A stretch of 32,000 nt of DNA from Microcystis aeruginosa NIES-843. GTDB lineage: Bacteria > Cyanobacteriota > Cyanobacteriia > Cyanobacteriales > Microcystaceae. The stretch is taken from the NCBI RefSeq assembly GCF_000010625.1, contig NC_010296.1:5310001-5342000 (forward strand). The letters are read 5' to 3'. Positions 1,287 to 22,946 of this stretch are shown piece after piece (the stretch's first letter is position 1; each line of letters opens with the position of its first letter). The position numbers and the translations under genes were made by a program. The notes under the pieces are model-generated. The model saw nothing but the letters and a program-made list of their open reading frames with translations, was not told the origin of the DNA and made no database searches.

Positions 1287-1781
1287 TTAATGATCATTGT
1301 CTAATTCTGTTTTTAGCCAATTAAGAATCGGAGAACTAATACGAATTCCATAATCAACTAACTGTTGTGATAAATCTAAAATTTCTTGTTTAGATAGATA
1401 ACCTGCATAAAAACCAACCAAGAGAATTCCTAATGTTCCTTTGACGGGTAATTCCATAGCTTTGGCAACTCTTCTTGCTAATTTCTCATCTATAATTACC
1501 CAGTCTGGTTTGATTGAAATTGCCAAGAGAATAACTTCTAATTCTCCTCGATCTAATCCTAGTAATAGCGGTTCAAGAGGAGATGATGATGCAACTTCTT
1601 GAGCTTGAATCCAATTGGCATTTTTGAGTTCTTTTGCCCCCGGTTTATTATCTCCAGCGATGACAATTTCTTGATAAACTGCCCAAGGAATAATCACTTC
1701 ATTAAATAGCTGATTAAGAAGATCTAATTGATTAATCAAAGATAAGGCGATGATCGGTGTAGAATTAACAATTATCTTCAT
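1287..1781 (-). CDS. DUF3368-type PIN-like nucleic-acid-binding protein (putative toxin)
   Basis: 164 aa. The N-terminus IIVNSTPIIALSLINQLDLL and overall length fit the DUF3368 PIN-like family. It overlaps the upstream UPF0175 gene by 17 nt, the usual pairing for this family. Confidence 0.7.
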   Translation of the reverse strand: MKIIVNSTPIIALSLINQLDLLNQLFNEVIIPWAVYQEIVIAGDNKPGAKELKNANWIQAQEVASSSPLEPLLLGLDRGELEVILLAISIKPDWVIIDEKLARRVAKAMELPVKGTLGILLVGFYAGYLSKQEILDLSQQLVDYGIRISSPILNWLKTELDNDH

Positions 1782-2055
1782 TCTCTTTGATTTTTTTGGC
1801 TAATTTACGGCTGGTTTGTATTTCTGATTCCCATTCTTCTGCTGTGTAATCAATAATGGAAAAACCATACTCAGAGAGAAGTGTATAAAATGTATATTTA
1901 TCGCATCCTAATACTTGTGCGCCGATTCCTGCTGAAATTTTTCCTTCTTGATAAAGATGCCCTAATGTATAAATTATGACTTTACGAGAGAATGCTTCTT
2001 TTTCTTCTCTGGCAGCAATGAGGAGTTCTTCGGGAAATGTTACATTAATGCTCAT
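1765..2055 (-). CDS. UPF0175-family antitoxin-like protein
   Basis: 96 aa with LGHLYQEGKISAGIGAQVLGCDKYTFYTLLSEYG, a UPF0175-like HTH region. It lies upstream of and overlaps the DUF3368 gene. Confidence 0.7.
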   Translation of the reverse strand: MSINVTFPEELLIAAREEKEAFSRKVIIYTLGHLYQEGKISAGIGAQVLGCDKYTFYTLLSEYGFSIIDYTAEEWESEIQTSRKLAKKIKENEDNC

Positions 2056-2166
2056 GAGTGTTTAAAAATAATTTGTTTTTCTTGATTTTAGCAAGAATAA
2101 TAGATCTATTCACCATCGCTTTTTTGACTCGAAGCTGGAGATTGTGGTTAAAACGAGACAGGGCAA

Positions 2167-5100
2167 TCACTTCCACCAGCGGCTGACTTCTCTAATTGCT
2201 TGATGGACTTCTCTGAGGGCGACCACTCCACCAAAATGAAGGATTAAAGGGACTAAGTTGGGAATAGTTTCGAGGAAATGAGGACGAGTGAGAGTACCCA
2301 AAGCCTGAAGGGTATTTTCCCAGAAAGATAAGTCAACATTAGCAGGGGTTAAGGTGGCTGTTAATGCTTTTAATGCCTCTGCACGGTCGGATTCAGACCC
2401 AATCCCTCTGGCAGCTTCTAAAGCTTCCGGTAACGCTTGTGGTAAATAGGGAGCTAACCCGGTCAATACCCTTGCACGGTATTTTTCATCCTTAATGGCT
2501 CTGGCAGCTTCTAAGGCTTCGGGTAACACTTCTGGTAAATAGGGAGCTAAACCTATCAATGCCCAAGCACGGTAGTATTCATTCCCAATCCCTCTGGCAA
2601 TTTCTAAGGCTTCGGGTAACAAACTTTCCGGTAAATGGGGAGCTAACCCGGTCAATACCTCCGCACTCCCAATGGCTCTGGCAACTTCTAAGGCTTTGGG
2701 TAACAAACTTTCCGGTAAATGGGGCGCTAACTCGGTCAATATCTCTACACGGTAGGATGGATAACCGATGTGGCTGGCAACCTCTAAGGCTTCGGGGAAT
2801 ACTTCCGGTAAATAGAGCGCTAACTCGATCAGTACTGGTGCAAGGTATTCTTCACCCCCAATCCCTCTGGCAACTGCTAAGGCTTCCGGTAACACTTCCG
2901 GTAAATGGGGCGCTAACTCGATCAATGCATAAGCACGGTATTTTTCATCCTTAATTGCTCTGACAGCCGCTAAAGCTTCGGGTAACACTTCCGGTAAATA
3001 GGGGGCTAACCCGGTCAATGCCTTTGCACGGGAGTCTTCATTCCCAATCCCTCTGGCAACTTCTAAGGCTTCGGGTAACAAACTTTCCGGTAAATGGGGA
3101 GCTAACCCGGTCAATGCCCAAGCACGGTAGTATTCATTCCCAATCCCTCTGGCAATTTCTAAGGCTTCGGGTAACAAACTTTCCGGTAAATGGGGAGCTA
3201 ACCCGGTCAATACCTCCGCACTCCCAATGGCTCTGGCAACTTCTAAGGCTTTGGGTAACAAACTTTCCGGTAAATGGGGAGCTAACCCGGTCAATGCCTT
3301 TGCACGGTCGGATTCAGACTCAATCGCTCTGGCAGCTTCTAAGGCTTCGGGTAACAAACTGACCGGTAAATAGGGGACTAACTTTCTCAATACCTCTGTA
3401 CGGTAGGATTCAGACCCAATGGATCTGGCAATTTCTAGGGCTTCAGATAAGATTTCCGGTAAATAGGGAGCTAACCTTGTCAATGCCTCTGCACGGTGGT
3501 CTTTATCCCCGATCGCTCTGACAGCTTCTAAGGCTTCGGGTAACAAACTTTCCGGTAAATGGGGAGCTAACCCGGTCAATGCCGAAGCGCGGGCGGATTC
3601 AGACTTAAAGACGCGGGTAATTTCTAAGGCTTCGGGTAACAAACTTTCCGGTAAATGGGGAGCTAACCCGGTCAATGCCGAAGCGCGGGCGGATTCAGAC
3701 TTAAAGACGCGGGTAATTTCTAAGGCTTGGGGTAACAAACTTTCTGGCAAATAGGGAGCTAACCCGGTCAATGCCCCCTCGCTCCCAATCGCTCTGGCAA
3801 TTTCTAAGGCTTGGGGTAACAAACTTTCGGGTAAATAGGGAACTAACTTTCTCAATGCATCTGCATTGGCGTCGTCATCCCTAGAATTCCTAATTGCTCT
3901 GACAGATTCTAAGGCTTCAGGCAACATTTCCGGTAAATAGGGTGCTAACCATCTCAATGCCGAAGCACGGTCGTCTTCATCCTCAATCCCTCTGGCAATT
4001 TCCAAAGCTCTCGGTAACAAACTTTCCGGTAAATGGGGCGCTAATCCTCTCAGTGCCCATGCACGGTCGTCTTCATCCTCAATAGCTCTGGCAAATTCTA
4101 AGGCTTCGGGTAGCACATTTTCAGAGAAATGGGGAGCTAACCTTGTAAATCTCTCTGCAAGTGAAGATTGATAATCATTGGCACTGACAAATTCTAAGGC
4201 TTCGGGTAACACTTCCGGCAAATAGGGAGCTAACCCTCTCAATGCCGAAGCACGGTAGTATTCAGTCCCGATCGCTCTGGCAATTTCTAAGGCTTCGGGT
4301 AACACTTCTGGTAAATGGGGAGCTAACCCGGTCAATACCTCTGCACGGGAGGATTCATTCCCAATCTCTCTGGCAATTTCTAAAGCTTCGGGTAACAAAC
4401 TTTCCTGTAAATGGGGCGCTAACCCGGTCAATACCCTTGCACGGGAGGATTCATTCCCAATCTCTCTGGCAATTTCTAAAGCTTCGGGTAACAAACTTTC
4501 CGGTAAATAGGGAGCTAACCCGGTCAATACCTCTGCACGGGAGGATTCATTCCCAATCTCTCTGGCAATTTCTAAAGCTTCGGGTAACAAACTTTCCTGT
4601 AAATGGGGCGCTAACCCGGTCAATACCCTTGCACGGGAGGATTCATTCCCAATCTCTCTGGCAATTTCTAAAGCTTCGGGTAACAAACTTTCCGGTAAAT
4701 AGGGAGCTAACCCGGTCAATACCTCTGCACGGGAGGATTCATTCCCAATCTCTCTGGCAATTTCTAAAGCTTCGGGTAACAAACTTTCCTGTAAATGGGG
4801 CGCTAACCCGGTCAATACCCTTGCACGGGAGGATTCATTCCCAATCTCTCTGGCAATTTCTAAAGCTTCGGGTAACAAACTTTCCGGTAAATAGGGAGCT
4901 AACCCGGTCAATACCTCTGCACGGGAGGATTCATTCCCAATCCCTCCGGCAATTTCTAAAGCTTCGGGTAACAAACTTTCCGGTAAATGGGGCGCTAACC
5001 CGGTCAATACCCAAGCACGGTAGTATTCATTCCCAATCCCTCCGGCAATTTCTAAAGCTTCGGGTAACAAACTTTCCGGTAAATGGGGCGCTAACCCGGT

Positions 5101-7437
5101 CAATACCCTTGCACGGTAGTTTTCAGACCCAATCCCTCTGGCAATTTCTAAGGCTTCGGGTAATAAAGTAGGGGGAAGATAGGGAGTAATTTTCTCTAGT
5201 CCTTCGGCTTGCTTGCTAGAATCTTGACTTTGCCGTACATAAACCAATCCCTGAGCAGGTGTCCATATTTCATGTTTAATCAGTGCCGCAATTAATTCTG
5301 GTGGAATATTAGTCGCCAAACTATTGAGGGAAGTGGTGATCAAAGCGTAACGCACCTGTAACCCCATAGACTGACCGGAATTGTTGGCAAAATCAGCTTC
5401 CGCCAGTTGCCAAGCTTTAACAACATCCTTGATAAAAATCGCCGTTTTCGCTTCTTTCTCGCATTTGCTATACCAGCCATTACCTCCTTCCGCGGTTTCC
5501 TCCCTCAGTAATTGATGAATCTCTTCAATTTTTCTTGCCTTTTCTAAATGCCAAATCAATTGATTGTAAATATAGCCATCATCCTCTAAACTGTGCCATA
5601 AACCATTTTTAGTCTGTTTTTTGTACCTGCTTAAAAGTTGCCGATTAGCTTCAGAAATTGATAAGCCCAACCCCGGTAATTGATAATCGCTTTCAGAATG
5701 GGGAGAGGCTTGTAAAAGATTACGCGCTAGATCGTGTAAGAGGTCATGGACACGATAACTGACGGTTTGTTCACTAGAAACCCCTGTTAATAATAAGGCT
5801 TTACTGCCTAAATGTCTGAGGGTTTTCTTAGCTTCCGTGAGCCGACAATCCCATAAAGTGGTTGCCATTTTTTCCGTAATTGTCACATCATCGGGTAAGA
5901 CCCCTAACCAGGTAAACTGTTGTAATCTTTGGGGCAATAACCGTTTTAAGCTGAGATTAAAAGAAGCGATTAAACTATAATTTTTACGCTTTTCTTGATT
6001 GGTTGCGTCTTCCGCTTCTAAGCGATCTAAAATTTCTAAATTAGTGATTTCTGCCCGTAAATCTTCAATTAATTCAGTCCAAGAAATATTATCTTCAATT
6101 TGTGCCGCGGTTAACTCTAATGCCAACGGTAAATAACCGACAATTTTGGCGATAATTTTGGCTTGTTTCTGGTCTTCTAAAGTTAATTCACGCTGTAGAT
6201 GACTCGACAATAACGCCAAAGATTGAGTCTCCGTCATGATGTCCAAATCATAACGAATCGCTCCGCTTACTCGGGCTTCTCTTGTCGTTACCAACAATTT
6301 ACAGCCATCCCCCGCCACTCGAAACGGTTCCACATCCTCCGCGTTCCAGAGATCATCCACTACTAATAAAGCCTTTTTATCTGCTAATAAAGTTCTTAAT
6401 TGTAAGGATGCCGCATCAATACCAGTCGGCATAAAATGATAATCTCCTAATGATTGTATCCACTGATGAAGAAAGGATAAAATATCCGGTTGTTGCCCTA
6501 AAGTTGCCCAGAAAATGCCATCAGGAAAAAAAGCTTGAACCTCTTTCTCCTGTGCTAATGCCGCCGCTAAAGTGGATTTACCAATCCCTCCTAATCCATA
6601 AATAGCAATAATAACTAAGGTTCCTATTTCGGTTTTTTCTTTAGATAACAGAAGTTCCTTTAATTTAACAATAACCTCTGGACGTTCGACAAAATACCTC
6701 GGTTTAGGAACAGCTTGATTGCGATAGGAAGAAGATTTTAAAGAAGCGGATATAACGGGTTTAGGTTCAGGATCAATATCATGTTTTTCTAATATCTCAC
6801 ACCATTCGGTATTTTTATAAACCCTGGCCAAAGATTCAGCTTCTAAAGATGCCCGACGATCTATACTTAGCTGTTTAGATTGTACCCCAATCACTAACCC
6901 ATGACAAACAATTGCTGATCCCGATGTTCCTTGCCAAGGTGACTGATCTTCTGCTAATTTTTCTAATTGTTCATCGGTGGGTTGTATGTCTTGACTATCT
7001 TTAATATTTAATAACAACCGGTTATAAGGCGCACGATTAGCTACATCAATAGTTCCCTCAATATGTAACCCTGTGGCGTATTTTATACCATCTTCAGAAT
7101 ACCGTAAAAATAGAGGAAAGCCCAAAAAGTCAAATTTAACTTTTTGGGTGCTACTCGCATCAGGTAACAACCCAAAACCTACAGGATCACAAGTTTCGAT
7201 AGTTTCTGGTAATTCTACTAATGCTATATCGATATTATCTGGTGCTTTCCAAATTACTTGAGCGTCTATATCCTGCTTATCAGAATAGTCTGATGCTGAT
7301 CTAAATCGTACTTGACAGTCGTTACTATTATCAAATAGATGCCGACAAGTTAAGAGTAAACGTCCCCCAATTCGATAGGCAGTGCCATACTTAGGGGCAA
7401 CAATTTCTAAAGCGCGATCGGGTTGGAATTGGGGCAT
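2167..7437 (-). CDS. STAND NTPase: N-terminal trypsin-like serine protease, NB-ARC (Apaf-1/R-protein type) module, ~30 x 32-aa helical solenoid repeats
   Basis: 1756-aa uninterrupted ORF.
- Protease: candidate triad H33 (LLLTCRHLF), D70 (NIDIALVEL), S172 (WQGTSGSAIV).
- NB-ARC: Walker A GLGGIGKST (aa 281-289), Walker B LLVVDDLW (aa 357-364), LLVTTR, GYLPLAL (GLPL-like), VHDLLHDLA (MHD-like), then an Apaf-1-like helical region (YIYNQLIWHLEKA).
- Repeats: aa ~750-1696 are tandem repeats with consensus LPEALEIARxIGxExxRAxxLTGLAPxLPESL. Confidence 0.9.
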   Translation of the reverse strand: MPQFQPDRALEIVAPKYGTAYRIGGRLLLTCRHLFDNSNDCQVRFRSASDYSDKQDIDAQVIWKAPDNIDIALVELPETIETCDPVGFGLLPDASSTQKVKFDFLGFPLFLRYSEDGIKYATGLHIEGTIDVANRAPYNRLLLNIKDSQDIQPTDEQLEKLAEDQSPWQGTSGSAIVCHGLVIGVQSKQLSIDRRASLEAESLARVYKNTEWCEILEKHDIDPEPKPVISASLKSSSYRNQAVPKPRYFVERPEVIVKLKELLLSKEKTEIGTLVIIAIYGLGGIGKSTLAAALAQEKEVQAFFPDGIFWATLGQQPDILSFLHQWIQSLGDYHFMPTGIDAASLQLRTLLADKKALLVVDDLWNAEDVEPFRVAGDGCKLLVTTREARVSGAIRYDLDIMTETQSLALLSSHLQRELTLEDQKQAKIIAKIVGYLPLALELTAAQIEDNISWTELIEDLRAEITNLEILDRLEAEDATNQEKRKNYSLIASFNLSLKRLLPQRLQQFTWLGVLPDDVTITEKMATTLWDCRLTEAKKTLRHLGSKALLLTGVSSEQTVSYRVHDLLHDLARNLLQASPHSESDYQLPGLGLSISEANRQLLSRYKKQTKNGLWHSLEDDGYIYNQLIWHLEKARKIEEIHQLLREETAEGGNGWYSKCEKEAKTAIFIKDVVKAWQLAEADFANNSGQSMGLQVRYALITTSLNSLATNIPPELIAALIKHEIWTPAQGLVYVRQSQDSSKQAEGLEKITPYLPPTLLPEALEIARGIGSENYRARVLTGLAPHLPESLLPEALEIAGGIGNEYYRAWVLTGLAPHLPESLLPEALEIAGGIGNESSRAEVLTGLAPYLPESLLPEALEIAREIGNESSRARVLTGLAPHLQESLLPEALEIAREIGNESSRAEVLTGLAPYLPESLLPEALEIAREIGNESSRARVLTGLAPHLQESLLPEALEIAREIGNESSRAEVLTGLAPYLPESLLPEALEIAREIGNESSRARVLTGLAPHLQESLLPEALEIAREIGNESSRAEVLTGLAPHLPEVLPEALEIARAIGTEYYRASALRGLAPYLPEVLPEALEFVSANDYQSSLAERFTRLAPHFSENVLPEALEFARAIEDEDDRAWALRGLAPHLPESLLPRALEIARGIEDEDDRASALRWLAPYLPEMLPEALESVRAIRNSRDDDANADALRKLVPYLPESLLPQALEIARAIGSEGALTGLAPYLPESLLPQALEITRVFKSESARASALTGLAPHLPESLLPEALEITRVFKSESARASALTGLAPHLPESLLPEALEAVRAIGDKDHRAEALTRLAPYLPEILSEALEIARSIGSESYRTEVLRKLVPYLPVSLLPEALEAARAIESESDRAKALTGLAPHLPESLLPKALEVARAIGSAEVLTGLAPHLPESLLPEALEIARGIGNEYYRAWALTGLAPHLPESLLPEALEVARGIGNEDSRAKALTGLAPYLPEVLPEALAAVRAIKDEKYRAYALIELAPHLPEVLPEALAVARGIGGEEYLAPVLIELALYLPEVFPEALEVASHIGYPSYRVEILTELAPHLPESLLPKALEVARAIGSAEVLTGLAPHLPESLLPEALEIARGIGNEYYRAWALIGLAPYLPEVLPEALEAARAIKDEKYRARVLTGLAPYLPQALPEALEAARGIGSESDRAEALKALTATLTPANVDLSFWENTLQALGTLTRPHFLETIPNLVPLILHFGGVVALREVHQAIREVSRWWK
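2350..5195 (-). repeat. Intragenic tandem repeat array (96-nt / 32-codon unit, ~30 copies) encoding the C-terminal solenoid of the STAND protein
   Basis: - Three perfect 192-nt copies at 4321-4512, 4513-4704 and 4705-4896.
- A near-exact 2 x 96 nt duplication at 3539-3730.
- A 166-nt exact duplicate: 2559-2724 equals 3114-3279.
- All remaining units are recognisably related. Confidence 0.95.
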
Positions 7438-7476
7438 AACTTATCGGATTGATGTAACCTATTCTTCTGGGATGGC

Positions 7477-7502
7477 GATGGGTTACGCTTCGCTAACCCA
7501 TC
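7477..7502 (-). repeat. Small GC-rich stem-loop in the trypco2-STAND spacer
   Basis: gatgggtta (7477-7485), loop cgcttcgc, taacccatc (7494-7502): a perfect 9-bp stem. It resembles a dispersed cyanobacterial hairpin repeat family from memory; the family assignment is not verified. Confidence 0.6.
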
Positions 7503-7555
7503 CTACAAATTAACTGCTTTGGGGGCAAGCATTGCGTCCCTAGGGGTATAAAATT

Positions 7556-7858
7556 CTAATCGGGAATATCATCACTTCCTGTCTTGATAGGTCCTCCATC
7601 TTTCCCAATGGGTTTAAGGGGAATTTTAATTCTATGGGTTATCGTATCTTTATTGGTGACACCCCCACCCATTTCTACTACCCAAAATTTCAGCCCACCT
7701 TTGCCTTCTTTCGACTGCTCAACCACAAATTGAACCTCTAATTCAATTTCACCCACTTCAAAGCGAATCTGCTCACCCTCAGAGGCTAAAATAGATTTAC
7801 TGAGTTCAACCCGCAATGCTTCTAAGGTTTCTCGAAGTCCAACTTTATTGATGTCCAT
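7556..7858 (-). CDS. trypco2-like (trypsin co-occurring domain 2) small protein
   Basis: 100 aa. LRETLEALRVEL...IRFEVGEIELEVQFVV...GGLKFWVVEMGGG...THRIKIPLKP matches my recollection of the trypco2 family pattern (RFElgpvELEf...FWVv..gG...tHrvkl.L.P). It lies immediately upstream of and co-oriented with the protease-STAND gene. Confidence 0.7.
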   Translation of the reverse strand: MDINKVGLRETLEALRVELSKSILASEGEQIRFEVGEIELEVQFVVEQSKEGKGGLKFWVVEMGGGVTNKDTITHRIKIPLKPIGKDGGPIKTGSDDIPD

Positions 7859-8089
7859 AATTCTCTAGTTATTTTTGAAGGATGCAGACCAAAACCCTTT
7901 CAATTCTATCGTTTTTCTGAAACTTTAGGGCGGACGGATTGCCTTTATCCAATTGATATAATAGCCCAACCCGATCGCTAAGGTAAGCGCGGGTTGGGAA
8001 AAGACATCGACCTAATATTATCTCAAGACTAAAATGACAAATTGAATTAGCATCGAGCTATTTTGCTAATACAAGGTGTCAAAATAAAA

Positions 8090-9811: not shown

Positions 9812-11296
9812 TTAGCGGGTTAAGGCCGCGCCTCTTTCGTACAAAGTGCGGGCATAATCGGTCCAAGTACCTTGGCCCCAATAACGGAAACAACTGGTTT
9901 GCACGAGCAAATTATAAAGCAGTGCCTCCAGATAATCGGGCCGTCGGGTGAAGCTAGGATCCGCCTGTACTAAAAGATCATATTTCTCGTGGAATTTAGC
10001 GCTTAATTGGTTCATCGGTTCGAGAACATTTTCGTAACCGCGCACCCAACTGAGATCATTGGTCCAAGATGCCCCATCCATGGTAAAACGGTGGTCGGAC
10101 TGTTTTAACTCAGCGATCGCCTGTTCCACTGCTTCTGGGGTAGCGGCATCGGGATTAACTCGCTGCCAGATTTTATGCTGGTGTACGGCTTGAATTGGGG
10201 GATAATCTTGGGGATTAACGCCAGCGGCCTCGATTAACTCCAGATATTCCGTGCCGTTAAATCCTGCCACAGTGGAACCCCCCTGCATTTCCCGCCAAGG
10301 ATTGGGAAAATCGCGAGGAAATTCATTCATCATCACGCCACCATTTTCACCGTCGGCAATCTGGGAACCTAGGGAAGGAACCCAAACGCCGCCGATTTGC
10401 TGTTTACCGCGGCATTTGGCCTCGTGGTAGGGTTGCATTTGGGCGACTAATTTGGTGTCGGAACCCTGGGTTTTAATCAAAGCAGTAATCGCAATCACTT
10501 CCCCGCGAGAATTACGGGCCACCAGGCGATTAGGAATATATTTTTGTTCCTGACTCAATCCCGAACCGTCGAGATTTTCCACCGAGTGTTCCTGTACCAA
10601 TAACCAACGATAGCCGCATTCTTTCAGGGCTTTAATATACTCGTAGAGGGTATCGGGATGGTTAGGAAGGTGCATTTCCGGGGGAGAGAACCCTTTGACT
10701 CGTTTCAGGGCATCGGGGCCAAAAATCGAGGCAAAATAGGTTTGCCATGCTTGCATCTGTAATTTTAGATCGGGAATCGGTGTGGAAGGAGCCACCGCAT
10801 GACTCCACATCGTCCCCAACCATTCCACATAGGGTTGATATTGACTGTTACAGGTGATTAATTTGAGTTTATCGAGGATATCCTGCCGTCCCATCTGTAC
10901 CAAACCCCAGAGGAGATTGCCGGAATAATCGAGCATAATCCGGGGATTACAGCCTTCCGCCACCAATTCCGGGATAAAATCGCCCATGCGACTGTAACAC
11001 CAGGCAAAAACGCTGGCATTATGGTTATCACCATCCCCCTGATTCTCGAACATATGCTGGAGATTGCAGATTAATTCACCATTAACACCCGCGGGGATGG
11101 TGGGTTGGTGCATATGCAAGGCACAGGCAAAACCAGCCTTGATATGGTCTAATTGGAGATTTGTTGTCGGTAAAAAGATCGGATCATCGTGATTAACAAT
11201 CGCTGCGATTTCCTGTTCCCAACCGCAAATAGTCGGTAGTCCGGGGCGGATTTCCGTGATAGCGTTCGATTTCGATGATACGGGTGTAGCGATCAT
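9812..11296 (-). CDS. Glycoside hydrolase family 57-like protein
   Basis: 494 aa. ALHMHQP (GH57 region I HxHQP), GYRWLLVQEHS (WxxE nucleophile-region-like) and IADGENGG (DGE-type acid/base region). Confidence 0.65.
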   Translation of the reverse strand: MIATPVSSKSNAITEIRPGLPTICGWEQEIAAIVNHDDPIFLPTTNLQLDHIKAGFACALHMHQPTIPAGVNGELICNLQHMFENQGDGDNHNASVFAWCYSRMGDFIPELVAEGCNPRIMLDYSGNLLWGLVQMGRQDILDKLKLITCNSQYQPYVEWLGTMWSHAVAPSTPIPDLKLQMQAWQTYFASIFGPDALKRVKGFSPPEMHLPNHPDTLYEYIKALKECGYRWLLVQEHSVENLDGSGLSQEQKYIPNRLVARNSRGEVIAITALIKTQGSDTKLVAQMQPYHEAKCRGKQQIGGVWVPSLGSQIADGENGGVMMNEFPRDFPNPWREMQGGSTVAGFNGTEYLELIEAAGVNPQDYPPIQAVHQHKIWQRVNPDAATPEAVEQAIAELKQSDHRFTMDGASWTNDLSWVRGYENVLEPMNQLSAKFHEKYDLLVQADPSFTRRPDYLEALLYNLLVQTSCFRYWGQGTWTDYARTLYERGAALTR

Positions 11297-12907: not shown

Positions 12908-13726
12908 GTGAAGACCGATACAATTTTTTATCAACTCTTGCAAACCTTTCCGGGGTTAATTTTTGAATTACTGGGAGAATCAACCCAGAAAGCTGAAAAT
13001 TATCAATTTTCCTCCCGAGAAATCAAAGAATTAGCGCGTCGTTTTGACGGTATTTTTTTACCGACCACAGCAGCACCGGAACTAATGATTTACTTTGTTG
13101 AAGTGCAATTTCAGGATAAAAGTGATTTTTATTGGCGATTTTTAACAGAAATTGTCATCTATCTCAATCAGTATAAACCCGTTCAGGATTGGATAGCTGT
13201 AGCTTTATTTGCCTCCAGGGATCTGGATAATAACTTTCCCTATCAACTGCGGGGATTTGAGATAACGGGACAGATCAGACCTATTTATTTAGATGAATTA
13301 ATCGATAGTCCGGCTCCGTCTCTGGGTTTAGGAATTATTCAGTTAATTGTCGCTACACCCCAATTAGCACAGCAACGAGGAAAACCACTTTTAGAAAAAG
13401 CGATCGCTGAAATTGATGATCTAGTTTTCCAGCAAAAAGTTGTAGAATTAATTGAAAGAACCTTAGCCTATAAATTTACTAATCTTAGTCGTGCGGAGTT
13501 AGAAGCTATGTTCGGATTAGATGATCTCAGACAGACTCGACTTTATCAAGAAGCTAAACAAGAAGGTCGTGAAGAAGGTCGTGAAGAAGGTCGTGAAGAA
13601 GCTAAAACTGAAGCGATCGCTGGTTTACTAGCTTTAGGTTTAAGTATAGAACAGATTGCCACTGCTTTGCAATTAGAACTTACCAAAGTACAAGAGACAG
13701 CGGCCAAATTATCCCCCCCAAATTAG
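12908..13726 (+). CDS. Rpn/YhgA-like PD-(D/E)XK recombination-promoting nuclease family protein (DUF2887-type)
   Basis: 272 aa with a GTG start. MKTDTIFYQLLQTFPGLIFELLG, FDGIFLP...YFVEVQFQ (a D...ExQ nuclease-like core), and a C-terminal GLSIEQIATALQL HTH-like tail. Paralogue of 21009-21806. Confidence 0.75.
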   Translation: MKTDTIFYQLLQTFPGLIFELLGESTQKAENYQFSSREIKELARRFDGIFLPTTAAPELMIYFVEVQFQDKSDFYWRFLTEIVIYLNQYKPVQDWIAVALFASRDLDNNFPYQLRGFEITGQIRPIYLDELIDSPAPSLGLGIIQLIVATPQLAQQRGKPLLEKAIAEIDDLVFQQKVVELIERTLAYKFTNLSRAELEAMFGLDDLRQTRLYQEAKQEGREEGREEGREEAKTEAIAGLLALGLSIEQIATALQLELTKVQETAAKLSPPN

Positions 13727-13761: not shown

Positions 13762-15108
13762 CTATTCATTCATATTACGATAGGTAGCCACTGCCGAGGG
13801 AGAAATGCGATTGAGATAACGGAAAATCCAATATTTTAAGACTGTATCCAAGATAACGGGAAAAGTGGCGATAAAGAGAAAATTAAACTGGCGATTTTCC
13901 GGTAAACCGAAATGACGACTTAATCCTTCTAGGATCACTTCCCAACCGTGGGGAGAGTGGAAACCGACAAATATATCGGTAAAGAGAATAATTAAAAAAG
14001 CTTTAGCTGAATCGCTAAGATTATAGAGAATGCCATCCAGAAAAGACTTGACAATCTCGATTTCCCGACGACTAAAAGCGACAACAAAACCAAAGGCAAT
14101 CAGGGAACAAATATCGGCGAAAATATTAGCGATCGCATTTAAACCTCGTTGGCGAAATTCTTCACTTAGTACCGCGGCTTTTTTGGTAATTTCTCCCTCG
14201 ATTTCTTCGTTAGATAATTTGGGTGCTAAACCAATCATACCTCGAAAATGTAAAGCTTCCTCAAATCTTCTCAATTCCGAAAAAGCTTCTTCTTCTAAAT
14301 CCTGATTGATAAAAATAAACTGTTCCTGTTGTTGGAAATATTTATTAACCAAGGGGGTAATCAGGAAAGTTTTGGTTAATTGCTGGGTCAACAAAGGAAC
14401 AATAATTAACAGTAAAATAAACTTGAGGGAAATGGCTGTTTTATAACGAGAATTGCGAAATTTCTTTAAAACTGCCTCCTCCGATTCCTCCGCTTGGGGA
14501 TCAATTTCCTGTTTAATGCGATTAAAAGTATTGACAAAAGAACGGGGTAAAACCCCCGGTTTTTCCGTAGCTTTTTGGGATTTATTACTTTTGATTATTT
14601 CCTCATCTTCAATACTACCCGCTGCTAAAAAAGAGCGATTTCTAGAAGTCTTATTTTTGGCTGTTTCCTGCTCAAAATTTCTGTTCTGGATACTTTTGGG
14701 AACATCTTGAATATCTTCTTGCCAATAATTATCTTGATATTTTCCGATAATACTATCGATAAACTGAAGTTTTTTCAGACAAACATCTGTGGTGACAGTA
14801 ATCACCCCATTATTAATTGTCGGTTGATTAGGTCCGAAAGTATTAACGATTGATCGACTAGCTTTAAACTCCGTCAATCTGACTTTAATTTTTTGCAGAT
14901 AACCTTTAACTTCTGCGATAAAATAGGAATTAGTGCTGCTGCCATAATTCGAGAATTCATTCGCCACTTTTCGCCCTTGAAAATGCTTGTCTTCTATCTC
15001 CTTAATCTTCAAAGCTGCATGATAAGCCTCATCTAAAGAACGTTCAGGAGTTTGTAATAACCATTGATTAACACCTTGCAAAATCCGATTAAGATTCATA
15101 GGAAACAA
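13762..15108 (-). CDS. pxcA: Proton extrusion protein PxcA (CemA family)
   Basis: 448 aa. The C-terminal HSPHGWEVILEGLSRHFGLPENRQFNFLFIATFPVILDTVLKYWIFRYLNRISPSAVATYRNMNE is the conserved CemA/PxcA domain. The long N-terminal extension is typical of the cyanobacterial form. Confidence 0.9.
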   Translation of the reverse strand: MFPMNLNRILQGVNQWLLQTPERSLDEAYHAALKIKEIEDKHFQGRKVANEFSNYGSSTNSYFIAEVKGYLQKIKVRLTEFKASRSIVNTFGPNQPTINNGVITVTTDVCLKKLQFIDSIIGKYQDNYWQEDIQDVPKSIQNRNFEQETAKNKTSRNRSFLAAGSIEDEEIIKSNKSQKATEKPGVLPRSFVNTFNRIKQEIDPQAEESEEAVLKKFRNSRYKTAISLKFILLLIIVPLLTQQLTKTFLITPLVNKYFQQQEQFIFINQDLEEEAFSELRRFEEALHFRGMIGLAPKLSNEEIEGEITKKAAVLSEEFRQRGLNAIANIFADICSLIAFGFVVAFSRREIEIVKSFLDGILYNLSDSAKAFLIILFTDIFVGFHSPHGWEVILEGLSRHFGLPENRQFNFLFIATFPVILDTVLKYWIFRYLNRISPSAVATYRNMNE

Positions 15109-15177
15109 TTACTTCCACAAGGGAGAAAAGCTAGAGTACCGATCAGTCATCTTAACAAATACAATCCAGAAAAAACG

Positions 15178-17298
15178 ATGTCAATCATACCAATTTGGAT
15201 CGAAGGTGGGACTCGATCGGGAAAAACCACCGCTTTAGTCGGGGAATTTCGGCGCTGGGTTGTTTCTCAACTTCAGTCCCAGGATTCATTGTATCTCGAT
15301 CGACCGAAATCATCGCCCCTTCCCCGCTCGATCTTAGTTTTCGCTGCCAACGATGATAATAAACGGGAATTAGCCGATCAATTAGCCCTTGCTGTTAGGG
15401 GTAGCTATCCGATTCTCTGCAAAACCCCTTTAGGTTTTCTCACCGATGAAGTCATCCTGTTTTGGCCGTTAATTTTCGAGTCTTTAGGGCTAAAAGCGCA
15501 ATTTCCCCGCCGATTACGCCCAGAAACGGAACAGGAACTCGCCACCCGTCTCTGGCAACCAGCGATCGCTGAATTCTTCCAGCCTACTAGCATAAATGAA
15601 TATCGTTTCGTCCGTCAAGTTCTCGATTTGTTACAATTAGCCGGCGCTAGTGGTGTTCCCGCAGAAAAGATACCCGAAAGATTAGCCGACGGATTATCAG
15701 AAACAGATTTAAAACGAGTTTTAGCGATTAATGAGCAGGAAACACCAGAAAAAGTGGGAGAATTAATCATTCAATGGCGTGATTGGTCTCTAGAACGTGG
15801 TTTATTAAGTTATGGTATCATCTACGAACTCTATTGGCGCTATTTATTTCCTGATAGTCGTTATCAGCAGCAACTATTAAAACGCTTCCGGGGAGTTTTT
15901 GCGGACGATGTGGACGATTATCCGGCTATTGCCAAGGATTTACTCAGTTTTTTCCTCGATCATGATTGTTTTAGCGTTTTTACCTACAATCCCCAGGGAA
16001 AAATTCGCTTAGGATTAACTGCCGATCCCGATTATCTGCAAAAATTAGCGGCACGCTGTCAAATTATGTCATTATCTACCACCGACGGGTTAGCTGCTCA
16101 GTTTAGCGAGACGGTTCTCTCCTTAATCAGCGACGGTAACTATCTTGGCAATCTTCCCGATCAATTCATCTCCCTGCAAACCACCTCTCGCGCCGAATTG
16201 TTACGGAAGACAGCCACCGCTATTATTCAAGCAGTCAAGCAAGGAGCAGTAAAACCCGAAGAAATCGCCGTTATTGCCCCCGGTTTAGACGAAATCGCCC
16301 GTTATAGCCTGATGGAAATTTTAACCGGTGCCGGGATACCCGTTCAACCCCTCAACGAACAACGACCCCTGATCAGTTGTCCTCTGATTCGGGCATTATT
16401 GACCCTTCTCGCCCTTGTTTACGCAAATTTGGGGCGTTTAGCCCCCCAAGAGGCCATAGCGGAAATGCTGGTGATTTTTAGCCGTTATCGCTGGGATGAA
16501 GAAGAGAATTTAATTCCCGATATCGATCCAATCCGCGCCGGATTAATTGCCGATCATTGTTATCAAGTGCATCCGGAAAATCCTCGTTTATTAGCGATCG
16601 AAACTTTTCCCCGTTGGGATCGCTTAGGACAAAAAGCTTGTACTGCCTACGAAAGAATTTGTCACTGGATCGAAGGGATGAAAAAACGGCAGCAGCAAGC
16701 GAAACTTTTCCCGATTTTTGTCTTAAATCAAGCGATCGAAGAATTATTAAACGATGGGGAAAATTTGCCCTTCGATCACTTGGCAGCTTTGCGAGAATTA
16801 ATGGAAACTGCCCAACATTTTTGGGAGATCGATCGGCGTTTGCGTGAGAGTGAACCCTCTTTTCAAAGTCCCAGCGAAACTATTAGTCAGTTTATCCAAC
16901 TTTTGCGCCGTGGTACAATTACCGCTAATCCCTATCCCGTGCGACAATTTATTAAATCTTCCTCAGCAGTTACCCTAGGCAATATCTTTCAATATCGCTC
17001 TTTTCGTTCTAGTCATCGTTGGCATTTTTGGCTAGATTGTTCCTCCCCACTCTGGGAACAAGGAGGTGCTGCTACTCTTTTTGCTGCGCCAATTTTTTGG
17101 CGAGAAAGTCCCTATCAACGCTGGACAACAGAGGCAGAATTAGAGGAAAATCAGGCACGTTTACAGAGAGTTTTAAGGGATTTATTAGCAAGGGTAAGCG
17201 AAAAAGTTATCCTCTGTCACAGTGATTTAGGAGTATCGGGAACCGATCAAACCGGACAACTTTTATCCTTAGTACAAGCGGCAAAAGAATATGATTAA
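15178..17298 (+). CDS. Conserved P-loop protein, UvrD/AddB-like helicase-nuclease superfamily (predicted)
   Basis: Walker A GGTRSGKTT close to the N-terminus and a Walker-B-like VFADDVDDYP. I prefer the ATG at 15178 (MSIIPIWIEGG) because the track start at 15064 overlaps the divergent pxcA 5' end. The function is inferred from motifs only. Confidence 0.5.
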   Translation: MSIIPIWIEGGTRSGKTTALVGEFRRWVVSQLQSQDSLYLDRPKSSPLPRSILVFAANDDNKRELADQLALAVRGSYPILCKTPLGFLTDEVILFWPLIFESLGLKAQFPRRLRPETEQELATRLWQPAIAEFFQPTSINEYRFVRQVLDLLQLAGASGVPAEKIPERLADGLSETDLKRVLAINEQETPEKVGELIIQWRDWSLERGLLSYGIIYELYWRYLFPDSRYQQQLLKRFRGVFADDVDDYPAIAKDLLSFFLDHDCFSVFTYNPQGKIRLGLTADPDYLQKLAARCQIMSLSTTDGLAAQFSETVLSLISDGNYLGNLPDQFISLQTTSRAELLRKTATAIIQAVKQGAVKPEEIAVIAPGLDEIARYSLMEILTGAGIPVQPLNEQRPLISCPLIRALLTLLALVYANLGRLAPQEAIAEMLVIFSRYRWDEEENLIPDIDPIRAGLIADHCYQVHPENPRLLAIETFPRWDRLGQKACTAYERICHWIEGMKKRQQQAKLFPIFVLNQAIEELLNDGENLPFDHLAALRELMETAQHFWEIDRRLRESEPSFQSPSETISQFIQLLRRGTITANPYPVRQFIKSSSAVTLGNIFQYRSFRSSHRWHFWLDCSSPLWEQGGAATLFAAPIFWRESPYQRWTTEAELEENQARLQRVLRDLLARVSEKVILCHSDLGVSGTDQTGQLLSLVQAAKEYD

Positions 17299-21008: not shown

Positions 21009-21806
21009 TTAATGGGTTTCTGGTATTTCTCGCACTTTTTCTACAGTTAAGTCCAAGGCTTGAGCAATTTGTTCTACCGTTAAACCTAAAGCCAATAAAC
21101 GCGGCACAGATTCCAGTTTACCTTCCAGTTTACCTTCCAGTTTACCTTCCAGTTTACCTTCTTCTCGAACGTCTTGAAAATAACGGGTTTGTTTCAGTTC
21201 ATCTAAACTAAACATGGCTTCTATCTCCCGGCGACTTAGACGTGGTAATTTATAGATAAGGATCGTTTCTATTAATTGTAGGAAGTTTTGCGGTTGGGTA
21301 AATTCAGTTCGCACTCGTTCAATAAGTTGTTTGGCTGTTGCCACTGCTTGATTTTCTTTAGCAATAATTAATTTTATAGTGGCAATACCGAGGGAATCTT
21401 GATTAATATCATCTAGTTCATCTAAATAGATTCGCGTCACTCTCCCAGATGTCAATAAGTCTTGATAACGTACAACCTGATCTGATTCTACCCGACGATG
21501 GGGATAAATGACCACCCCGCGCCAATCATTGTTAAAAGCAGTTTTACTGAGATATAAGAAGATTTCAGCAAAGAAACGGCCATAAAAATTCTGATCATCT
21601 TGAAATTGCACCTCGCAGAAATAAATAGGAATGCTAGGATCGGTAATATTGGGCAAAAATACGCCATCAATACGAAAAGCTAGTTGCTTGATTTCGACGG
21701 AATCAAAGCGGTAATTCTCGGCTTCTCCGGGGGAAAGGTTGATTAATTCAAAGAAAATTGACGGATAAGATTGAAAAAGATCATAAAAAATACTGTCGGT
21801 TTTCAT
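21009..21806 (-). CDS. Rpn/YhgA-like PD-(D/E)XK family protein (DUF2887-type), paralogue of 12908-13726
   Basis: 265 aa. MKTDSIFYDLFQSYPSIFFELI, IDGVFLP...YFCEVQFQ, (EGKL)x4 repeat, and an LLALGLTVEQIAQALDL tail. Confidence 0.75.
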   Translation of the reverse strand: MKTDSIFYDLFQSYPSIFFELINLSPGEAENYRFDSVEIKQLAFRIDGVFLPNITDPSIPIYFCEVQFQDDQNFYGRFFAEIFLYLSKTAFNNDWRGVVIYPHRRVESDQVVRYQDLLTSGRVTRIYLDELDDINQDSLGIATIKLIIAKENQAVATAKQLIERVRTEFTQPQNFLQLIETILIYKLPRLSRREIEAMFSLDELKQTRYFQDVREEGKLEGKLEGKLEGKLESVPRLLALGLTVEQIAQALDLTVEKVREIPETH

Positions 21807-22052: not shown

Positions 22053-22946
22053 ATGACTGGAAGACTGAACAAGCTACAACAAGATTTAAAGAACATAGAA
22101 ACGGAAGTGGCAAATTTAGCCGAAAGAATGCGAGAAAAATACCGAATTTATCTTGATTTACTCGGTGAATCTCTCTATAAACAGGCGATCGGGGCAGTGT
22201 ATTATATCTGTACCCGTTACTATGGGGGGGAATTTCTGGCCCTCTCCCACAGCAATCGTCAGAAACTACAAGAGGAGATCAAAGCTCTAGGACAAGAGGC
22301 TAAAGCCAGTTTACAGCAATTGGGCGAGCAGAGCTTCGAGCGAGGGGCATTTTCAGGGGTAGGATTCTCTAAAAGTCCAGCAGAGACAGTTAACACCCCA
22401 GATTTCTGGAAACTTTTTCTAGACAAACGGGAAAATCTAGCCGCAACTGGAGAGATTAATAACCCCGATATTTTACTTTATTGTTGTCGAGTGCTGGAAA
22501 AAAACTGTGTCGAGATTCTCAATCATCTCTCTAAACAAATTAATCAGCAACTACAAAAAGCTTATATTCTTCCCCCTCATCTACCCAGTCAAATTATCGA
22601 TATGGCAATTCAAGCGGGAGAAGAAGGACAATCCCTAGGTGGAGGAAATAATATGTTAAACATTCTAGTGGAAGCTAAAAACCCTGAACCAGAGGAAGAA
22701 AAAGATGAAGATGAAGATGATGGGGATGAGCATGATTTTTCAAGTGGCAAAGTCACTAAAGTAACGGCGATTCATCTACGAATGGCTGAACTGGAATTTG
22801 CTGATACGCGCTTAAGTGTGGAAAGAAATCAAATTCGCTCCCTTTGGGAACAATTAAATCGTCTAGGGGAACAATATCATCGTATTCGCAAAGAATATAC
22901 TATCGCTCAAGCGGAAGCGGCATGGCGCAGTAGTTGGTACGATTAA
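22053..22946 (+). CDS. Hypothetical coiled-coil protein with acidic tract
   Basis: 297-aa ORF with no overlap conflicts. Heptad-like N- and C-terminal segments and an EPEEEKDEDEDDGDEHD tract. No family recognised. Confidence 0.55.
   Translation: MTGRLNKLQQDLKNIETEVANLAERMREKYRIYLDLLGESLYKQAIGAVYYICTRYYGGEFLALSHSNRQKLQEEIKALGQEAKASLQQLGEQSFERGAFSGVGFSKSPAETVNTPDFWKLFLDKRENLAATGEINNPDILLYCCRVLEKNCVEILNHLSKQINQQLQKAYILPPHLPSQIIDMAIQAGEEGQSLGGGNNMLNILVEAKNPEPEEEKDEDEDDGDEHDFSSGKVTKVTAIHLRMAELEFADTRLSVERNQIRSLWEQLNRLGEQYHRIRKEYTIAQAEAAWRSSWYD

Follow-up and report, generated by a model that had tools for sequence, protein, structure and literature searches.

What does a gene pair do in which a gene for a 100-aa protein (aa, amino acids) is followed by one for a 1756-aa protein that joins a protease to a nucleoside triphosphatase (NTPase) and a long repeat array? 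The pair in question is on the minus strand of Microcystis aeruginosa NIES-843, at 2167-7858 of a 32,000 nt stretch (GCF_000010625.1, contig NC_010296.1, positions 5,310,001 to 5,342,000), here called the window. An earlier note made from the sequence alone had proposed it as an uncharacterised antiphage system resembling the nucleotide-binding leucine-rich repeat (NLR) receptors. From sequence comparisons, we place the pair with very high confidence in the Pepco(Trypco2)/protease-STAND module family, and we consider it probable that it is a two-gene, protease-activated Pepco cell-suicide defence module of Microcystis, with a mechanism that can be read from homology. As comparative work had predicted the pairing in 2020 and experiments on a homologous pair followed in 2025, this is not a new kind of system. 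What belongs to this locus are an NTPase of the Apaf-1 type, a repeat sensor that is unclassified and changes rapidly, a Thr aligned with the cleavage (P1) residue together with a very short tail, and a slot-like allelic turnover. The features of the pair, all on the minus strand and in window coordinates, are listed here with their basis.

7556..7858, minus: Trypco2/Pepco gene, 100 aa, predicted latent pore-forming toxin (Pfam PF19631 and SsPepco homology)
7784..7837, minus: Trypco2 N-terminal helix, aa 8-25, with a predicted hydrophobic stripe L8/L12/L15/L19 (monomer model and alignment)
7559..7600, minus: predicted cleavage region and removable C-terminal tail, aa 87-100, DGGPIKT↓GSDDIPD (alignment with SsPepco)
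7438..7555, minus: intergenic spacer, 118 nt, between the Trypco2 and STAND genes
2167..7437, minus: trypsin-protease/NB-ARC/repeat STAND gene, 1756 aa (open reading frame read from the sequence)
6763..7437, minus: trypsin-fold serine protease domain, aa 1-225, candidate triad H33/D70/S172 (Pfam, AlphaFold2 and Foldseek)
6055..6666, minus: NB-ARC (AP-ATPase clade) STAND NTPase, aa 258-461, with Walker A K287, Walker B D361/D362 and the TTR sensor 1 (Pfam PF00931)
5506..5913, minus: putative winged-helix/Apaf-1-like helical region, aa 509-644, including VHDLLHD (MHD-like) (weak Pfam matches)
2338..5169, minus: predicted sensor array, 30 tandem ~32-aa repeats, aa 757-1700 (Tandem Repeats Finder and anchor-motif splitting)
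2167..2337, minus: non-repeat C-terminal cap, aa 1701-1756, and stop codon (translation)

Both open reading frames (ORFs) are exactly where the earlier note had placed them, co-oriented on the minus strand and 118 nt apart, and both are intact over 5.3 kb, with all catalytic and NTPase motifs present. The small protein is 93-95% identical to other Microcystis proteins, and the first 700 aa of the large protein are up to 99% identical to proteins of that genus. The spacing is 118 nt in those Microcystis loci that have an intact pair and reaches ~390 nt in other genera. A promoter and terminator scan found no terminator-like site in the 118-nt spacer and no more promoter-like matches there than expected by chance, and the two genes are probably co-transcribed across it. 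The spacer includes a hairpin-capable sequence, GGGTTAGCGAAGCGTAACCC (7480-7499, minus strand; 6-bp stem, 8-nt loop), which does not have the look of an intrinsic terminator because it is not accompanied by a T-run.

Recognition of the 100-aa protein as a trypco2 family member, as in the earlier note, was borne out by a match to Pfam Trypco2 (PF19631; E=5e-24; 84.8 bits, cut-off 24.2) that spans profile positions 1-78 of 78. The family is large, with 1335 clusters at 50% identity (E<=1e-3). The NCBIfam trypco2 search that had been suggested alongside returned no model match for this protein in release 20, even though NCBI names the 93-95% identical Microcystis homologues 'trypco2 family protein'.

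The further statement that such a pair has no experimental characterisation is out of date. In a November 2025 preprint, Evans et al. (10.1101/2025.11.14.688446) renamed Trypco1 and Trypco2 'Pepco' and characterised SsPepco and SsAvs4 of Streptomyces subrutilus, SsAvs4 being a trypsin-like protease fused to a STAND sensor. They found that phage portal proteins trigger toxicity only if Pepco and the protease serine are both present, and that deletion of the SsPepco gene abolishes it. Pepco forms constitutive nonamers and decamers that resist heat and sodium dodecyl sulphate and have a beta-barrel architecture, and the SsAvs4 protease cuts a ~2 kDa tail off SsPepco after Ile97. SsPepco that ends exactly at Ile97 is lethal, and a shift of one residue abolishes toxicity. 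An N-terminal amphipathic helix is also needed, as toxicity is abolished by L10R alone and by a triple mutant that includes L17R. In the survey reported there, Pepco-protease is the most abundant protease-effector module, is prevalent in Actinobacteria and cyanobacteria, and is fused to diverse sensors. Among the roles that the earlier note had offered for the small protein, 'substrate or pro-toxin' matches what was found for the homologue SsPepco.

The window pair resembles the Streptomyces pair in organisation, with a small Trypco2-family gene directly upstream of, and co-oriented with, a gene for a protease, a STAND NTPase and helical repeats. SsPepco and the first 399 aa of SsAvs4, both taken from Table S1 of the preprint, were used for comparison. 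SsPepco also matches PF19631 (E=5e-18) and is 32% identical to the window Trypco2 (BLASTP; E=4e-8). The two proteases are likewise homologous (26% identity; E=3e-11), and their triads align, with H33/D70/S172 opposite H34/D82/S170. The pairs differ in their NTPase, which is NB-ARC/AP-ATPase in the window and Avs4-type in SsAvs4, in their sensor (30 unclassified 32-aa repeats, in contrast to the Avs4 portal sensor), in the end of the Trypco2 protein (an aligned P1 Thr93 and a predicted 7-aa tail versus Ile97 and a 20-aa tail) and in their host, a cyanobacterium here and Streptomyces there. The preprint labels its SsAvs4 serine mutant S151A; in Table S1 the protein has Asp at position 151, and S170 is its GxSG serine. 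As S151 is correct for VcAvs2, the label was probably carried over from that protein.

We aligned 141 diverse Trypco2 proteins with SsPepco (MAFFT). L10 and L17 of SsPepco align with L12 and L19 of the window protein, and both columns are conserved as hydrophobic across the 141 members. The SsPepco cleavage site, I97↓R98, falls opposite T93↓G94. The P1 column contains V49/I35/T34/L12 and the column that follows it G46/S39/A19, which makes the P1 column beta-branched rather than strictly Ile, with Thr as the residue of this Microcystis clade. Family-wide, the experimentally cleaved position lies in a conserved motif, D-G-x-P-[VLI]-x-[VIT]↓[GSA], which is followed by a charged tail containing Pro or Gly. 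In the window protein the predicted tail, GSDDIPD, is 7 aa long (43% charged, 14% Pro). On this alignment, cleavage would occur at or near T93↓G94, with cleavage after I91 as an alternative. Of 112 aligned diverse Trypco2 proteins, 100 have a Pro two residues from the C-terminus (P99 in the window protein; window 7559-7564, aa 99-100; motif [ILV]-P-[DE]). This Pro lies beyond the predicted cleavage site and may serve the protease as a docking element.

The trypsin-like protease that the earlier note had seen at the N-terminus of the 1756-aa protein, with H33, D70 and S172 as its candidate triad, was recovered by profile and fold searches. Pfam Trypsin (PF00089) matches aa 18-189 above its cut-off (E=5e-6), while Trypsin_2 is just under its own (27.3 bits versus 27.6). 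An AlphaFold2 model of aa 1-240 had a mean predicted local distance difference test (pLDDT) score of 75 and a predicted template modelling score of 0.79, and a Foldseek search of the PDB with this model returned 673 matches at E<=1e-3, of which the listed top 50 were all trypsin/chymotrypsin-fold (PA-clan) proteases or inactive paralogues. Among homologues, H33 and D70 do not vary, S172 hardly does, and G170-T-S172-G173, corresponding to the GxSG motif, is conserved. The domain thus has the PA-clan fold, with His, Asp and Ser in the canonical order, and we treat the three residues as a candidate triad.

Behind the protease is the Apaf-1/plant-R-type NB-ARC module that the earlier note had described: PF00931 matches aa 258-461 (E=2.5e-21), and the motifs GLGGIGKST (281), LLVVDDLW (357), LLVTTR (381), GYLPLAL (434) and VHDLLHD (563) are all present. 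By sequence, its best solved relatives are AfsR (2e-22), Apaf-1 (4e-18) and plant NLRs, with the Apaf-1 and AfsR alignments covering aa 244-576. Matches to the region that follows are weaker, with APAF-1-like_WHD below its cut-off (E=0.005) and APAF1_C marginal (23.2 versus 22.8 bits). No Avs structure was among the PDB sequence matches of the NTPase, and comparison with the 399-aa SsAvs4 fragment found no similarity beyond the P-loop (E=1.8). The window protein would work like SsAvs4 and yet, from its sequence, is of the AP-ATPase type and not Avs4. An AfsR-like transcription regulator was considered and rejected, as the NCBIfam match spans the NB-ARC alone (87 versus a cut-off of 1430 bits) and there is no DNA-binding domain. 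In Moorena, close relatives of the NB-ARC have an EAD4 adaptor in place of the protease, and relatives of the protease also exist as free-standing Trypsin-EAD1 and Trypsin-EAD9 proteins. These combinations fit the adaptor toolkit described by Kaur et al. 2020 (eLife, PMC7159879).

The remainder of the protein is the repeat array. The earlier estimate of about 30 tandem 32-aa repeats agrees with a split at anchor motifs, which gave 30 units of 28-35 aa between aa 757 and 1700, and with Tandem Repeats Finder, which reported a 96-nt unit (26.4 copies, 81% matches, 2667-5167) and a 288-nt period extending down to 2372. The consensus, SLLPEALEIARGIGNExxRAxALTGLAPHLPE, has the pattern of a putative helix-turn-helix solenoid unit. 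No curated Pfam repeat family was above threshold for the array (TPR_12 15.7 versus 30.1 bits, ELYS borderline, no HEAT match), and the search of solved structures by sequence yielded no meaningful PDB match, only a weak, low-complexity-type match to CagY. The C-terminal cap is 73-84% identical in homologues that differ in repeat number. With the protease, NB-ARC and repeat domains and the two-gene organisation in place, the effector-NTPase-repeat-sensor architecture that the earlier note had drawn holds.

The array appears to be changing rapidly. The DNA of units 4, 6 and 8 is 100% identical, as is that of units 5 and 7, from which we conclude that a 192-nt double unit was amplified very recently. 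Amino-acid variability between units is concentrated at positions 12, 15, 18 and 21. The ratio of the proportions of non-synonymous and synonymous differences (pN/pS) is 2.68 at positions 12/15/18/21/22 and 0.70 elsewhere, with similar pS (0.18 and 0.22); as these positions were picked post hoc, once the variability had been seen, the contrast is suggestive and is not a formal test. It suggests an excess of replacements at a few positions and purifying selection at framework positions. Diversification by a diversity-generating retroelement (Dore et al. 2023) was considered and rejected, as neither the flanking genes nor the large window ORFs that were scanned yielded a reverse transcriptase. 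The variation of the array lies between tandem units and between alleles.

If the two proteins form one system, their genes should stay together. A scan of one genome per species with a narrower Trypco2 alignment reached 17 related loci, and because of that number the broader co-occurrence of Trypco2 and protease rests on the literature. Conservation of the neighbourhood, which had been set beforehand as a test that could refute the proposal, was found in 12 of the 17, where a trypsin-domain ORF lies downstream of Trypco2 on the same strand, starting about 30-390 nt away. The paired loci are from Microcystis, Crocosphaera, Snowella, a Synechococcales metagenome-assembled genome (MAG), an uncultured-bacterium MAG and Streptomyces. 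In addition, a trypsin-domain gene follows the identical Trypco2 in every contig examined that carries that Trypco2. What is found behind the protease varies, as follows.

L002-L005 and L009, Microcystis, Crocosphaera and Snowella: NB-ARC (by Pfam for L005 and L009; by DNA homology to the window gene for L002-L004)
L013 and its near-identical neighbour L014, Streptomyces: NB-ARC and TPR
L012, Crocosphaera MAG: NACHT and canonical HEAT (HEAT_2) repeats
L017, Streptomyces: NACHT
L001, Microcystis sp. BLCC-F210: nSTAND5 and other repeats

The Trypco2-protease unit is thus joined to NB-ARC, nSTAND5 or NACHT with varied repeats, which is the modularity that Evans et al. describe. The repeats of the Crocosphaera MAG relative are canonical HEAT_2, in contrast to those of the window array.

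Within Microcystis the same exchange can be followed at a single position. The left flank (scpA, pdxH and on to Trypco2 codon ~80) and the right flank (a toxin-antitoxin cluster, window ~2102 to 1032) are 96-98% identical across other Microcystis genomes, whereas the DNA between them differs, and four kinds of allele were seen. In the first, the pair is intact and Trypco2 is 100% identical, and the partner has 1477 or 1445 aa and contains 19 of the repeat anchor motifs, compared with 1756 aa and 30 in the window. Identity to the window declines along this partner, from 88-91% in the protease to ~82% in the NB-ARC and 68-77% in the helical region. The second is the nSTAND5 cassette of BLCC-F210 (L001:6847-12265 versus window 1760-8009), where DNA identity is 94-96% from upstream of Trypco2 to protease residue ~225 and homology resumes about 65 nt beyond the stop codon, at window ~2102, with an unrelated nSTAND5 and repeats in between. 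As identity breaks at residue ~225 of the protease, the NTPase-sensor part has been swapped as a cassette at a domain boundary.

The other two alleles lack the NTPase and sensor. In four genomes (L006:3220-3477, L007:7001-7258, and L008 and L010 with coordinates as L007) there is an 85-aa Trypco2 that is 96-99% identical to residue 81 and ends with IKIPL followed by SFCQ and a stop codon. The protease-STAND gene is absent from these, and COP23 genes and signal-peptide-bearing CHAT-domain genes fill the slot. This shortened Trypco2 looks like a recombination scar, with pairing to the CHAT protease as an alternative. The fourth kind keeps Trypco2 intact and 100% identical, but behind it there is only a protease stump, 261 aa long in one contig (L020:8422-9207) and 215 aa in another (L021:4208-4855); a Uma2-family gene and small ORFs come after the stump in L020. 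In databases the 261-aa protease-only form is common (P0357, P0359, P0360, P0363). The system is therefore frequently lost, and presence/absence and cassette variation of this kind is typical of conflict loci. Two further observations concern the right end of the slot. In M. ichthyoblabe (L007), which has no STAND gene at the slot, a 188-nt copy of the STAND 3' end (L007:12486-12673 versus window 2165-2352; 87%) lies past the toxin-antitoxin cluster and may be a remnant or part of a paralogue elsewhere. An extra PhdYeFM-ParE pair lies between the STAND gene and UPF0175/DUF3368 in two loci with the same Trypco2 (L018:12888-13398 and L019:12827-13337) and is not present in the window (2056-2166), indicating that the toxin-antitoxin cluster is itself variable.

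What the sequences show of the proposed cell-suicide module is that its proteins belong to these families, that their motifs are intact, that the genes stay paired, that NTPase and sensor are exchanged like a cassette and that the repeats evolve fast; we infer every biochemical step of its mechanism. By homology with SsPepco, Trypco2 would be made as a latent toxin, probably a pre-assembled 9-10-mer beta-barrel. The 30-unit helical array of the 1756-aa NLR-like sensor would bind a trigger, most likely a cyanophage protein, and this would free the NB-ARC NTPase for nucleotide-dependent oligomerisation. Oligomerisation of this kind is established for STAND proteins and Apaf-1. The oligomer would cluster and activate the N-terminal trypsin-like domains, which would then cut the short acidic tail off Trypco2 at or near GGPIKT93↓G94SDDIPD, the position aligned with I97↓R98 of SsPepco. 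The trimmed barrel would permeabilise the membrane and kill or arrest the infected cell.

The surroundings of the pair are only partly those of a defence locus. The downstream flank contains HEPN+MNT and UPF0175+DUF3368 toxin-antitoxin-type pairs, and to this extent the 'defence-island-like context' of the earlier note stands. It does not extend to the upstream flank (pdxH, scpA) or to the other large window ORFs with a Pfam match, which are housekeeping genes (CemA, hydrogenase maturation, RecG, hybrid-cluster protein) and two copies of DUF2887. No Pfam match was found at the thresholds used for 9812-11296 (minus, 494 aa), 15064-17298 (plus, 744 aa) and 22053-22946 (plus, 297 aa). The two DUF2887 paralogues (12908-13726, plus, E=5e-69; 21009-21806, minus, E=2e-83) are in inverted orientation and flank a ~7-kb block with CemA and hydrogenase-maturation-type genes.

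Several findings weigh against a protease-activated Pepco defence module. Direct experiments are confined to SsPepco and SsAvs4 of Streptomyces, and none are cyanobacterial. The NTPase here is, by sequence, not of the Avs4 type, and for this reason the trigger and stoichiometry of SsAvs4 are not transferable to the window protein. By alignment, Thr93 is found where a 'highly conserved' P1 Ile is expected, which would leave a tail of 7 aa in place of the 20 aa of SsPepco; as activation of SsPepco is strictly position-dependent (Evans et al.), these differences leave the true cleavage site uncertain. The AlphaFold2 monomer model of Trypco2 is poor (pLDDT 47), with the helix at aa 8-25 as the sole element above pLDDT 50, so that it predicts no confident barrel and lends no structural support, which is unsurprising because the subunit is expected in an obligate oligomer. 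The Eisenberg hydrophobic moment of that helix (0.20 versus 0.24 in shuffled sequences) is not in significant excess, and it is marginal for SsPepco itself. In the protease model, residues 160-171, directly before S172, have pLDDT below 50. 'Defence island' overstates the context, and PADLOC-DB v2, which the earlier note had suggested consulting for an existing classification, has no model for the pair and gave only weak matches at the protease domain and the P-loop region.

Other explanations draw on the same observations. The pore could be activated by the protease as described and be used for something other than phage defence, namely programmed cell death, kin or colony discrimination or an endogenous stress response, in which case the array would sense a self or allelic protein in the manner of fungal het-locus NLRs. 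Allorecognition, like immunity, would be expected to go with the high polymorphism between strains. The pair corresponds to no model in the defence database, and the genes on one side of it are housekeeping genes. Evans et al. raise stress-response roles for related modules, and Kaur et al. 2020 (PMC7159879) tie such conflict systems to multicellular or aggregating bacteria. We nevertheless regard a non-phage use as unlikely, as the sole tested homologue is triggered by phage portal proteins, each of fourteen tested STAND (Avs) families is activated by a phage protein, and toxin-antitoxin-type neighbours with presence/absence polymorphism are typical of anti-phage loci.

The aligned P1 Thr in place of the conserved Ile, the far shorter tail, the model without a confident barrel and the persistence of truncated-Trypco2 alleles in several genomes would also suit a Trypco2 that is an inhibitor, chaperone or adaptor of the protease, with other host or phage proteins as the lethal or regulatory substrates. 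This is very unlikely given that deletion of the SsPepco gene abolishes toxicity and truncated SsPepco alone kills, that the helix/strand core and the cleavage-region motif are conserved across the 141 members, the window Trypco2 included, and that the alleles with a truncated Trypco2 have also lost the protease gene, a pattern that resembles decay more than another function. Decay might instead be the state of the window locus, its long, partly identical array having arisen by slippage or assembly and having no sensing function. Clearly degraded alleles do exist in several sister genomes, many database homologues are partial, and five of the units fall into sets with 100% identical DNA. Of the alternatives we find an inactive remnant the least likely, since both ORFs are intact over 5.3 kb with their catalytic and NTPase motifs, the cap past the repeats is conserved, and framework positions appear to be under purifying selection (pN/pS 0.70) with a replacement excess at few positions.

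A protease-activated Pepco defence module, the reading that we prefer, has relatives of other kinds. In Kaur et al. 2020 (PMC7159879), Trypco1 and Trypco2 are defined by their position next to trypsin-like peptidases in conflict systems, and in the part of that survey that bears on them the toolkit is the same, with Trypco2 beside trypsin, AP-ATPase STANDs, repeat sensors and EAD adaptors. There they are set within vWA-MoxR (VMAP) ternary systems, whereas the window pair is a stand-alone two-gene protease-STAND locus, with no vWA or MoxR gene among the flanking genes that adjoin it. The closest bacterial relatives of Apaf-1 are found in cyanobacteria (Lee et al., 10.64898/2026.01.04.697583). 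With the apoptosome and these Apaf-1-like STANDs the window protein shares an NB-ARC and a winged-helix/helical region (E=4e-18 to Apaf-1) and would share the logic by which a sensor drives oligomerisation, the oligomer activates a protease and the cell dies. Unlike them, it has predicted alpha-helical repeats rather than WD40 propellers and a fused trypsin-like protease rather than a recruited or fused caspase, and its death effector would be a small pore protein. In bacterial gasdermin and EACC1 systems, too, a neighbouring protease strips an inhibitory C-terminal segment off a membrane-permeabilising protein, but their folds are unrelated to that of Pepco and, according to Evans et al., Pepco is assembled before cleavage, whereas gasdermin and EACC1 oligomerise only afterwards.

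A more specific proposal, which we offer tentatively and think rather less likely than not to hold as a whole, joins the array to the cleavage site: the array would be a hypervariable NLR receptor that tracks cyanophage proteins, and this Trypco2 clade would be cleaved at Thr-Gly to release a 7-aa tail. The receptor may diversify when near-identical units recombine unequally and when whole NTPase-sensor cassettes are exchanged at one fixed slot, and replacements may be focused on one surface of each repeat. The Thr-Gly site and short tail may point to a protease specificity unlike the published Ile rule. If this proposal is true, the array is, in Microcystis blooms, the bacterial equivalent of the hypervariable but internally conserved repeats that fungal NLRs carry.

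Among the toxic organisms that form freshwater blooms Microcystis is the main one, and the way in which its blooms collapse is influenced by how it interacts with cyanophages. The locus is a probable abortive-infection module, for which protease-licensed pore formation is a testable mechanism that comes from published work. With an identical toxin gene next to NTPase-sensor cassettes that have been exchanged, expanded or deleted, it is also a convenient natural system for the diversification of NLR-type sensors.

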